DNA of 64,000 nucleotides from Escherichia coli. Lineage in GTDB: Bacteria; Pseudomonadota; Gammaproteobacteria; Enterobacterales; Enterobacteriaceae. Numbering within the stretch: position 1 is the stretch's first letter; each line of letters begins with the position of its first letter. The translations under genes were made by a program, and so were the position numbers. The DNA lies in assembly GCF_013122565.1 (NCBI RefSeq), contig NZ_CP053258.1; one strand, 5' to 3'. Positions 9,151 through 59,004 of the stretch are shown here, in pieces. The notes beneath the pieces were generated by a model. The model worked only from the letters and a program-made list of their open reading frames with translations. It was not told where the DNA came from and did not search any database.

Positions 9151-10083
9151 ATGTGGTCAGAATATTCTCTCGAAGTTGTTGATGCGGTAGCGCGTAATGG
9201 TAGTTTTAGCGCTGCAGCCCAGGAGTTGCATCGCGTTCCTTCTGCGGTCAGCTATACCGTGCGTCAGCTGGAAGAGTGGCTGGCGGTGCCGCTCTTTGAA
9301 CGACGGCACCGTGATGTGGAGCTGACCGCTGCTGGAGCGTGGTTTCTCAAAGAAGGGCGCTCTGTTGTCAAAAAAATGCAGATCACCCGCCAGCAATGTC
9401 AGCAGATAGCGAACGGCTGGCGCGGTCAGTTAGCTATCGCAGTGGATAATATTGTCAGGCCAGAACGTACACGGCAGATGATCGTTGATTTTTATCGCCA
9501 TTTTGATGATGTCGAACTTCTTGTCTTTCAGGAAGTGTTCAACGGTGTCTGGGATGCGCTTTCCGACGGGCGCGTGGAACTGGCGATTGGCGCAACACGC
9601 GCGATTCCGGTAGGCGGTCGTTATGCCTTCCGGGATATGGGGATGCTAAGCTGGAGTTGCGTTGTTGCCAGTCACCACCCGCTGGCGTTGATGGATGGTC
9701 CGTTCAGCGATGATACGTTGCGCAACTGGCCGTCGTTGGTGCGCGAAGACACCTCGCGAACGCTACCTAAACGTATTACCTGGTTGCTGGATAACCAAAA
9801 AAGAGTTGTCGTGCCTGACTGGGAATCATCGGCAACCTGTATCTCGGCAGGATTATGCATAGGGATGGTGCCAACACATTTCGCCAAACCGTGGCTTAAT
9901 GAAGGGAAGTGGGTAGCATTAGAACTGGAAAACCCCTTTCCGGATTCGGCATGTTGTCTGACATGGCAGCAAAATGATATGTCGCCTGCGTTAACCTGGT
10001 TGCTTGAGTATCTCGGCGATAGTGAGACGCTGAATAAGGAGTGGCTGCGGGAGCCGGAAGAGACTCCCGCAACGGGTGATTAA
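9151..10083 (+). CDS. punR: LysR-family transcriptional regulator PunR (formerly YdhB)
   Basis: ORF track 310 aa; N-terminal LysR HTH region; divergent from punC. Confidence 0.85.
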
Positions 10084-11105
10084 CGACGATAGTCGCGGAA
10101 CGGGCCGTCAGCCACGGAACGGCGTTCAATCAAGCGCGGATGCACTTCAATGGACTGCGGTTCTTCACGTTTGTTGACGATACGATCCAACAGCATGTTG
10201 AACGCTGTTTCACCCAGCGAATCTTTTGGCTGATGGATCGTGGTCAGCGACGGCGTAAAATAGCGTGCGTTGCGCACGTTATCATAACCGATCAGCGAAA
10301 CATCCTGCGGGACGCGCAGCCCCATTTCATCAGCAGCACAAAGTGCGCCCATTGCCATGATATCGCCACCACAGAAGACGGCAGTAGGGCGATGCGGCTG
10401 CGACAGGATTTGCTGCATGGCGCGATAACCGGATTCAGGTTCAAAGTCACCCTGCACAATCCAGCTTTCCGGCACCTTGATCATCGCTTCTTCCATCGCC
10501 TTCATAAAACCGGCAAGGCGGCCTGCGCCGGTGTTGCGCTCCAGCGGGCCGGGGATGACGCCGATTTCGCGGTGACCGCGTTCAATCAGATAACGCCCGG
10601 CCATGTAGCCGCCTTCGAACGCGTTATCAATGACCGCATCGGTGAAGTCAGCTTTTGCTTCACCCCAGTCCATGACCACCATTGGGATATGGCGATACTC
10701 TTCCAGCATCGCCAGCAACGGCTCTGGGTACTCAGAACACATCACCAGCAGACCATCGACGCGTTTTTGCGCCATCATCGACAGATAAGCCCGCTGTTTC
10801 TCAAGATTGTTCCACGCATTGCCCAGAATCAGGGTGTAACCTTTCTGGAAGCAATTTTTTTCAACTGCTTCAATGATCTCGGCAAAATAGGCCGCTTCGC
10901 TGCTGGTCGCCAGCAAACCGATAGACTTGGTGTGGTTAACCTTCAGGCTACGCGCCACCGCGCTAGGGGAGTAGTGTAATTCTTTAATCGCTGCCCACAC
11001 GGCGTTGCGCGTTTCTTCAGCGACGAAACGTGTTTTGTTGATCACGTGTGACACAGTTGTAGTGGAAACGTTTGCTCGTTTCGCTACATCTTTTATTGTT
11101 GCCAT
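10080..11105 (-). CDS. purR: purine repressor PurR (LacI family)
   Basis: ORF track 341 aa; N-terminal [36 protein letters not shown] matches PurR HTH. Confidence 0.95.
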
Positions 11106-11149
11106 TCCATTTCACTCCAGACCCTAACTTCAGCTCCTGCAAAATCGCA

Positions 11150-11165
11150 AGGTAAACGTTTGCCT
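11150..11165 (-). promoter_or_regulatory. PurR box-like operator in the purR leader (autoregulation)
   Basis: Plus strand AGGTAAACGTTTGCCT, i.e. minus strand AGGCAAACGTTTACCT, matching the PurR consensus core GCAAACGTTTnC; about 45-60 nt upstream of purR start codon. Confidence 0.6.
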
Positions 11166-11403
11166 TTACACACCTTACGCACAACAAAAGTGTTGCGGTA
11201 CGCCGGAAAAACGACACGGAGCGTCAGGAAGGGGTCAATGGCCAGTACGCAAATAGTGTAAGCGTGGAATTTTGGCCGATCTTGACGAAAAGGGGAAGTG
11301 GTAAAAACACTTATCATTATAAATGACGGGAGATTTTTTCATCACAGTGTGTAAAAATGCGTAATATCACTTTTTGTGTGGTAATAAAAAAGGAGAAAAC
11401 TTG

Positions 11404-11493
11404 ATGAGCACCGACCTTAAATTTTCACTGGTAACAACGATTATCGTCCTCGGTTTGATCGTAGCCGTGGGTTTGACTGCCGCGCTGCACTGA
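11404..11493 (+). CDS. ynhF: small membrane protein YnhF (29 aa)
   Basis: ATG at 11404 preceded by AGGAG about 8 nt upstream; translation MSTDLKFSLVTTIIVLGLIVAVGLTAALH, single hydrophobic helix; matches known E. coli small protein in purR-ydhP intergenic region. Confidence 0.75.
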   Translation: MSTDLKFSLVTTIIVLGLIVAVGLTAALH

Positions 11494-11658
11494 TTTCCAC
11501 TCGAGGGAGCGCGTTCTCCCTCGCATCTCCTTCCTGTTTGTTAGCAAAATGGCAAAAGTGTTTTCTCTTTTTGTTATTTTCATTTTTTTGTGATTGCTGT
11601 CATGCTTTCGCCACTTTAATGAATATCGCGTAATGACGCGAAGAGGTGGAGATAAGGC

Positions 11659-39806: not shown

Positions 39807-42503
<2,697 letters not shown>

Positions 42504-57495: not shown

Positions 57496-59004
57496 TTACT
57501 GCTGCGGAATTGCCGGTACAGCCGGAACGTTAAGAGCTGGCATCGCAAACATGCCAACAAAATCTTCTAACGACATTTTCTGCCCGTTTAACGTGATCTG
57601 ACCGTTAGTATATTGCAGGCTGGTGGTGATGGTATTGTCCTGCAAGGTGGTCAGACGGAACATCTGCCCCATTGCTGATGCACCTTCAACTTGCTGTTTC
57701 GCCAGTTTTTTCGCTTGATCTTCCTGATAACCTTCCAGCTTCGCTACCTGAGTCATCAACTCAGTTGCCATATCCACCGGAATGGTCAGTTTCGCATCCA
57801 GAGATTTAACCGAACGATCTACTTCCTGCGCCAGCGTTTGCGGCGCTTCTTTAGTCGTTGCCGGATCTTTCAGGAACAGCGACAGATTCAGTGCACTTTC
57901 ACCCTGACTGTTTTTCCAGCTTAGTGGCGCGATAGTAATCACCGGATCGCCTTTCAACATCAGCGGCAGGGCGCTAAAGAAGGCTTCCGTCACTTTCTCC
58001 TGATAAAGTTCTGGATTGTTGGCAATTTCTGGCTGTGCCAGCAGCGCCTGAGTTTGCGCGTTATATTGCTGGCTAAACTGATGCCAGGCTTCGCCATCAA
58101 TTTGGCCGACTTTTAAAGTCAGCTTGCCGCTGCCCAGATCCTGATTCTGTACCTTCAGGCTGTTTAGCGAGTAATCCAGTTGGCTATTGATCGTTTTACC
58201 GTCATTGACCAGATCCGATTTACCGCTGATCTCCATGCCTTCCAGCAGTGCCAGTTCTTTGCCTTCCACTGAAATGGTCATTTTTTCCAGTGACAGTTTT
58301 TGATTTCCTACGCGCTCACCAAAACTTGCCAGCGTGCTGGAACCGTCGGTTTTCAGATTATTAAAGGTCAACTGTACTTTCTGGTTGTATTCGTTAACCG
58401 CGTCTATCCGACCACTTTGCGCCTCCCCGGAAAGGGAGATAGCTTTGCCGTCTCTGTCTGCATTTAACTGGAACTCGCCGCCGCTAAAGGCGACTTTTTC
58501 ATCCTTTTGCTCGTAATTCAGTGGCTTGAGCGAAATATCGGAACTGGAATCTCCGCTGTAACCAATGCGGGAGTTAATCTCAAAAGGCGTTTCACCTTTT
58601 GCCATATCAAACAGTGGCTTGCTAACTTCATTATTAACCAGCGTGGTTTGAATTGATGCCATCGACGGGATCAGGTTCAGTTTTTTTAGCTGGGCAAGGG
58701 GGAAGGGACCATGATCAACCGATTCGTTGAAGATGACGCTCTGACCGCTTTTAATCCACGGATTTTCTTTCCCGGCAATGGGTTTCACCAACAGTTGCAG
58801 CTGACTGCTGAATACGCCGCGATGATAGTTTTGATAACTCACTTCCAGGTTGGATTCAGGAGCGGTCAGTTTGAGTTGCGCGTTCGCCTGCGCGACCATG
58901 TCTTCGAGATGGGTTTCAATCTTCTTGCCTGTATACCATGCGCCGCCTGTCCAGACTACGCCTAGCGCAACAATGACGCCTACCGCTACCAGCGATTTAT
59001 TCAT
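57496..59004 (-). CDS. ydgA: DUF945-family protein YdgA
   Basis: ORF track 502 aa; N-terminal signal/anchor; matches E. coli YdgA length and position. Confidence 0.85.
   Translation of the reverse strand: MNKSLVAVGVIVALGVVWTGGAWYTGKKIETHLEDMVAQANAQLKLTAPESNLEVSYQNYHRGVFSSQLQLLVKPIAGKENPWIKSGQSVIFNESVDHGPFPLAQLKKLNLIPSMASIQTTLVNNEVSKPLFDMAKGETPFEINSRIGYSGDSSSDISLKPLNYEQKDEKVAFSGGEFQLNADRDGKAISLSGEAQSGRIDAVNEYNQKVQLTFNNLKTDGSSTLASFGERVGNQKLSLEKMTISVEGKELALLEGMEISGKSDLVNDGKTINSQLDYSLNSLKVQNQDLGSGKLTLKVGQIDGEAWHQFSQQYNAQTQALLAQPEIANNPELYQEKVTEAFFSALPLMLKGDPVITIAPLSWKNSQGESALNLSLFLKDPATTKEAPQTLAQEVDRSVKSLDAKLTIPVDMATELMTQVAKLEGYQEDQAKKLAKQQVEGASAMGQMFRLTTLQDNTITTSLQYTNGQITLNGQKMSLEDFVGMFAMPALNVPAVPAIPQQ

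Follow-up and report, generated by a model that had tools for sequence, protein, structure and literature searches.

The pur boxes of Escherichia coli share a 16-bp motif, ACGNAAACGTTTGCNT, that is bound by a corepressor-loaded dimer of the repressor PurR. The boxes of purF, purL, purMN, purHD, purEK, purC, and purT are found at the promoter, between the -35 and -10 elements or close to them, and repress by blocking initiation; initiation-blocking promoter boxes make up 14 of 32 PurR regions (Cho 2011, PMC3159470). The operator considered here, purR O1, has the motif and the dimer in common with these boxes and differs from them in its position, about 100 nt downstream of +1. In this respect it resembles the purB operator, which He & Zalkin reportedly described in 1992 as a roadblock, with a PurR box well downstream of the transcription start site (TSS) and with elongation, not initiation, hindered; purB has a single box in its coding region, whereas purR has two, in the leader and in codons 10 to 15. 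PurR “blocks transcription elongation” at purB and purR (Cho 2011, PMC3159470), and reviews describe an action of this kind as well. The GalR operators OE and OI of the gal regulon are also similar to O1, being 16-bp palindromes of the same family with a central CG, although O1 is without the GTG...CAC outer arms that are typical of GalR sites.

The closest described system is the purR gene of E. coli itself. Rolfes and Zalkin, in 1990, reportedly located O1 downstream of the transcription start but ahead of the start codon, and O2 within the coding region. Binding to the two operators is said to be noncooperative, with an affinity roughly sixfold higher for O1, and autoregulation is said to be two- to threefold. 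The PurR-DNA crystal structures of Schumacher et al. from 1994 reportedly identify the central CpG step as the hinge-helix contact point. O1 is therefore textbook biology, and nothing about its identity is new; purR was already known in 1990 to be autoregulated through two operators located downstream of its promoter, and meeting the site again has little value as a discovery.

We analyzed a 64,000-nt stretch of the E. coli chromosome, referred to as the window throughout. The features of the purR locus that the following text relies on are listed here by window position.

10080..11105, minus strand: purR coding sequence, a 341-amino-acid open reading frame (ORF) of the LacI/GalR family, encoding PurR, the repressor that acts at O1 and O2.

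11062..11077, minus strand: purR operator O2, GAGCAAACGTTTCCAC, in codons 10 to 15 (RANVST), at +187..+202, a RegulonDB PurR site.

11106..11263, minus strand: purR 5' untranslated leader, 158 nt, which holds O1; its ends are set by the TSS and the ATG.

11150..11165, minus strand: purR operator O1, which spans +99..+114 of the transcript and reads AGGCAAACGTTTACCT in the sense direction of purR; the 16 bp form an imperfect palindrome.

11263..11297, minus strand: inferred purR promoter, with -35 TTCCCC at 11297..11292, a 17-bp spacer, -10 CAAAAT at 11274..11269, and the TSS at G 11263.

The cognate repressor for a pur box is present in the genome, encoded by the 341-amino-acid ORF on the minus strand, which matched PDB purine repressor chains (1PNR, 1WET, 1BDI, and others) across the entire protein, with 766 bits. 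In RefSeq, the homologous gene carries the name purR (“HTH-type transcriptional repressor PurR”) in 5,425 of the 5,426 complete genomes of E. coli. A 441-nt segment that runs from the beginning of cydH through the intergenic region into purR, as far as codon 42, is identical in the window and in K-12 MG1655. Window positions were converted to MG1655 coordinates (NC_000913.3) as 1,737,844 + (11105 - window position), which places 11150-11165 at K-12 positions 1,737,784-1,737,799. The purR-cydH region had 5,431 matches in the E. coli collection, one of which was on a plasmid record and not on a chromosome.

Read from the window, the minus strand from 11165 to 11150 is AGGCAAACGTTTACCT, and the plus strand is AGGTAAACGTTTGCCT. 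The 16-mer is an imperfect palindrome that fits the pur box motif ACGNAAACGTTTGCNT when it is scored with a position weight matrix (PWM) from which this site was left out. Its core, AAACGTTT, carries a central CpG step between A/T-rich triplets. A gap of 44 nt separates the end of the box from the purR ATG (11105), and the box is centered at +106.5 relative to the purR TSS.

Published work identifies the same 16-mer. A PurR chromatin immunoprecipitation (ChIP-chip) region at purR has a log2 enrichment of 1.99 with adenine and shows no peak without it (Cho et al. 2011, PMC3159470 Table 1), and the ChIP-chip motif assigned there is AGGTAAACGTTTGCCT, at 1,735,808-1,735,823 in U00096.2 (PMC3159470). 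The purR ATG lies at 1,735,868 in U00096.2, with the last base of the motif 45 positions from its A, and the spacing in the window is identical. The PurR site list of RegulonDB, as reproduced in PMC2585596 Table 2, holds both AGGCAAACGTTTACCT and GAGCAAACGTTTCCAC, the latter being O2, and two purR boxes at 1,737,791 and 1,737,880 are described as overlapping the PurR operators of Rolfes & Zalkin 1990 (PMC5110547). Organism, sequence, and distance to the purR ATG are all the same as in the E. coli purR O1/O2 system (Rolfes & Zalkin 1990, J Bacteriol 172:5758; RegulonDB; Cho et al. 2011), and no difference was detectable. We are confident that the 16-mer is purR operator O1, a high-affinity binding site of the PurR dimer, and that the box in the window is that site itself and not a look-alike. 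The label “O1” comes from secondary sources.

A sequence-only reading of the window had described a PurR-box-like sequence on the minus strand at 11150-11165, had placed it between the likely promoter and the purR start codon, and had connected it with known purR autoregulation. The box is exactly as that reading wrote it, and the comparison with the published operator that it proposed returned the same 16-mer at the same distance from the ATG in the ChIP-chip data and both boxes in the RegulonDB list. The interpretation of the box as a PurR site is supported by these two sources and by what PMC5110547 says of the PurR operators. O1 therefore serves as a positive control, in which a reader working without tools recognized a genuine operator and gave its strand and the logic of its regulation correctly.

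One alternative explanation of the box is a chance palindrome without function, and simple mismatch counting is in keeping with it. When up to three mismatches to the idealised palindrome ACGCAAACGTTTGCGT were allowed, 0.65 matches were expected per shuffled window, and at least one match occurred in 48 of 100 shuffles, so that the count was neither significant nor discriminating. A PWM was therefore built from 27 other PurR motifs derived from ChIP-chip (Cho et al. 2011, PMC3159470 Table 1), with the purR site left out. Scoring against such a matrix had been proposed in the sequence-only reading, and with the site itself left out O1 scored 21.55 bits, more than any other of the 127,970 positions that the two strands of the window offer. 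It would stand 7th among the 27 training sites, themselves scored leave-one-out, and falls inside the range of 17 to 25 bits of the promoter-overlapping pur boxes. The exact probability of such a score is 3.2e-8 per position, corresponding to 0.004 expected matches per window and about 0.3 across the whole E. coli genome. Among 1,000 first-order Markov sequences of 64 kb, 12 attained the score of O1 anywhere. The runner-up locus in the window scored 12.74 bits, about 9 bits under O1, a value reached by 926 of 1,000 null windows.

The next PurR PWM matches in the window were at 42101..42116, 15737..15752, and 57828..57843, with 12.1 to 12.7 bits. Since 926 of the 1,000 null windows reach this level, there are no grounds to call these three loci PurR sites.

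Conservation bears on the same question. We collected 80 purR loci with 92 to 99% protein identity, one genome per species and all from Enterobacteriaceae (Escherichia, Citrobacter, Salmonella, Enterobacter, Klebsiella, Raoultella, Kosakonia, Kluyvera, Lelliottia, Pluralibacter, Franconibacter, and others), which together with the window gave 81 sequences. In all 81, the best PurR PWM match in the 320 nt searched upstream of the ATG starts at -57 to -60 from the ATG. Scores of these orthologous boxes were at least 18.3 bits in 80 of the 81 sequences, and the weakest was 14.05. In the alignment, no other 16-mer of noncoding sequence is as conserved as O1, which has 97.5% identity, compared with 59% in the 30 nt upstream and 61% in the 26 nt downstream. 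This constancy of position and sequence, the PWM probability, and the published occupancy in vivo (Cho et al. 2011, PMC3159470) all count against a chance origin; conservation and the ChIP data rule it out, and we regard its probability as negligible.

The pattern of substitution within O1 follows the PurR motif. The promoter-proximal half-site, AGGCAAAC, is 99.8% invariant, and the central CG has no exception among the 27 ChIP sites or the 81 orthologous boxes. Information content of the motif and identity among orthologues were correlated by position (Spearman rho = 0.67, p = 0.005), and the most variable positions of O1 were PWM position 2, where C and G are about equally common, and position 4, which is N. 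The variation in O1 is confined to positions of low information in the motif, and the operator stands out as a phylogenetic footprint. Within E. coli, the 60-mer around O1 is present in 5,424 of 5,426 genomes, and in the one variant 60-mer inspected, both differences lie outside the box. An IS1 insertion in E. coli PCN061 (NZ_CP006636.1 1697568-1699245) was considered as a disruption of the leader and rejected; the IS1A element lies between ydhP and cydH, and the leader and O1 are intact. Farther afield, the box is reported as absent in Vibrio and Pasteurellaceae, as relayed by a paper that cites Ravcheev 2002. To what is already known of O1, the comparative data add a small point, namely, that at least 80 species of Enterobacteriaceae have kept the operator and its distance from the ATG, together with the weak promoter and with O2, including the synonymous positions of the latter.

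A second reading of the palindrome, as an RNA hairpin conserved for its structure, was also weighed. The hairpin would belong either to STnc550, a plus-strand “sRNA” antisense to the purR leader (Rfam RF02081, “Enterobacterial sRNA STnc550”), or to the leader of the purR mRNA. RF02081 matches the plus strand at 11106..11496 with 396.5 bits (gathering threshold, 48), and the match takes in all 388 positions of the model; in the consensus structure of the family, the O1 box is shown as a 6-bp hairpin. However, the family spans the whole purR-cydH intergenic region together with the cydH ORF, and any palindromic operator within it would appear as a hairpin. A covariation test covering the O1 hairpin of RF02081 found no compensatory change among the 81 orthologous boxes: all variation was one-sided and pair breaking, with pair 2-15 being G.G or C.C in 14 boxes and pair 4-13 never forming a standard pair on the purR-sense strand. 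The Kim 2012 table has a single plus-strand TSS in the vicinity, which belongs to ynhF/cydH and lies at 11366, and none near 11106. The purR leader had no significant RNA structure and folded no better than shuffled sequences (z = -0.31). With this result and no covariation, RNA structure was rejected as an explanation for the leader or the box, and we hold it to be extremely unlikely. RF02081 looks like a mis-bounded sRNA candidate composed of cydH mRNA and conserved regulatory DNA, and a literature search for “STnc550” found no papers. The small cydH/ynhF ORF, of 29 codons, lies inside the RF02081 match at 11404..11493 on the plus strand.

The position of O1, as a DNA operator, relative to the promoter follows from a published TSS. 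The purR TSS was mapped to 1,735,710(+) with a 158-nt 5' untranslated region, on the basis of 31 reads in one high-throughput data set (Kim et al. 2012, PMC3415461, supplementary file 2). The 51-mer upstream sequence given there, ending in ...GGCCAAAATTCCACG, occurs once in the window, with its last base at G 11263 on the minus strand. This TSS bears out the placement of the box between the promoter and the start codon in the sequence-only reading, with O1 at +99..+114 (Kim et al. 2012).

From the spacing to the TSS, we infer that the purR hexamers are TTCCCC and CAAAAT. The inferred promoter is weak, matching 7 of 12 consensus positions with a poor -35 element. It is conserved among the 81 Enterobacteriaceae sequences, with 99.6% identity in the -10 element, 97.3% in the -35 element, 100% at the +1 G, and 78% in the spacer. 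A consensus sigma-70 scan found no promoter in the purR leader; it missed the purR promoter because only 7 of 12 positions match. The only sigma-70 consensus match in 10900..11700 lies at 11576..11603 on the minus strand, in the cydH-ydhP spacer and on the strand opposite both genes. As a promoter, this match (11603..11576) was rejected, since the TSS data give it no support.

Both O1 (+99..+114) and O2 (+187..+202) come after +1 and clear of the footprint that RNA polymerase has at the promoter. Because both boxes are so far downstream of this footprint, a roadblock is the proposed mechanism. At high levels of hypoxanthine or guanine, a corepressor-bound PurR dimer would bind O1 in the leader DNA, with its two helix-turn-helix domains reading the GCAAAC half-sites and its hinge helices touching the central CpG. 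The second and weaker PurR site, O2, in codons 10 to 15, would be bound as well. PurR at O1 and O2 would then obstruct the elongating polymerase as a roadblock while leaving initiation unblocked, and the expected outcome is modest negative autoregulation of purR. For this locus, the in vivo occupancy, the corepressor dependence, the autoregulation, and the roadblock are taken from the literature, and dependence on hypoxanthine or guanine as corepressor is consistent with the adenine-dependent ChIP signal.

In E. coli, the center of O2 is at +194.5, 88 bp downstream of the O1 center, or about 8.4 helical turns. Between species, the spacing of the centers varies from 85 to 88 bp; therefore, there is no fixed helical phasing, and we take each operator to work on its own, with no DNA loop between them.

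O2 scored 10.37 bits with the PurR PWM, a level at which about 4 matches are expected per window, and this score alone is not significant. Its position is constant: the codon offset is +28 in every one of the 81 sequences, 44 of which have a better-scoring variant, GCGCAAACGTTTCCAC, at 12.9 bits. Within the first 43 codons, degenerate third positions were 88% conserved inside O2 and 56% conserved outside it (permutation p = 0.015); when synonymous sites were taken five at a time, the best conserved runs (0.97) overlapped O2. This conservation suggests that the DNA sequence itself is under selection in addition to the encoded protein, which is what a functional operator inside a gene should show.

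A different repressor has also been placed at these boxes. GalR was found at ynhF/purR by ChIP-chip and quantitative PCR, with the inferred sites AGGCAAACGTTTACC, corresponding to O1, and GTGGAAACGTTTGCT, corresponding to O2 (PMC5110547 Table 3). O1 could on this basis be mainly or additionally a GalR operator, and GalR at both boxes would couple galactose status, or GalR-mediated looping of the chromosome, to purR. We scored the boxes with a GalR PWM built from 17 other ChIP-defined GalR sites, whose leave-one-out scores range from 13.4 to 22.1 bits. O2, at 14.46 bits, falls inside this range. O1, by comparison, reached 10.55 bits against the GalR motif GTGnAAnCGnTTnCAC, under every other GalR site, as against 21.55 bits with the PurR PWM. 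A ChIP-chip peak cannot separate boxes 88 bp apart, and the GalR signal may stem from O2 alone; moreover, GalR-dependent regulation was slight or absent in that study (PMC5110547). We therefore consider a GalR role for O1, with such coupling through both boxes, to be very unlikely. Binding of GalR, if real, is more plausibly at O2, judging from the two scores, and given the GalR ChIP report, PurR may not be the sole protein to use the O1 region. The two boxes show reversed scores, O2 being a respectable GalR site (14.5 bits) and a weak PurR site (10.4 bits), and O1 having 10.6 and 21.6 bits, respectively.

Identification of the 16-mer as the PurR operator O1 leaves room for two broader possibilities, to which we assign a small probability. 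One is that O1 and O2 could double as GalR operators, adding sugar status or GalR looping to purine control. Separately, a block of the leader at +14..+68 (11250..11196, minus strand) could be a further, undescribed cis-regulatory element. This block is 86% identical among the 81 Enterobacteriaceae sequences, versus about 60% around O1. It includes a weak hairpin with a T-run at 11226..11212, which was matched by a terminator scan and is conserved, and an inverted repeat, TTGCGTAC...GTACCGCAA.
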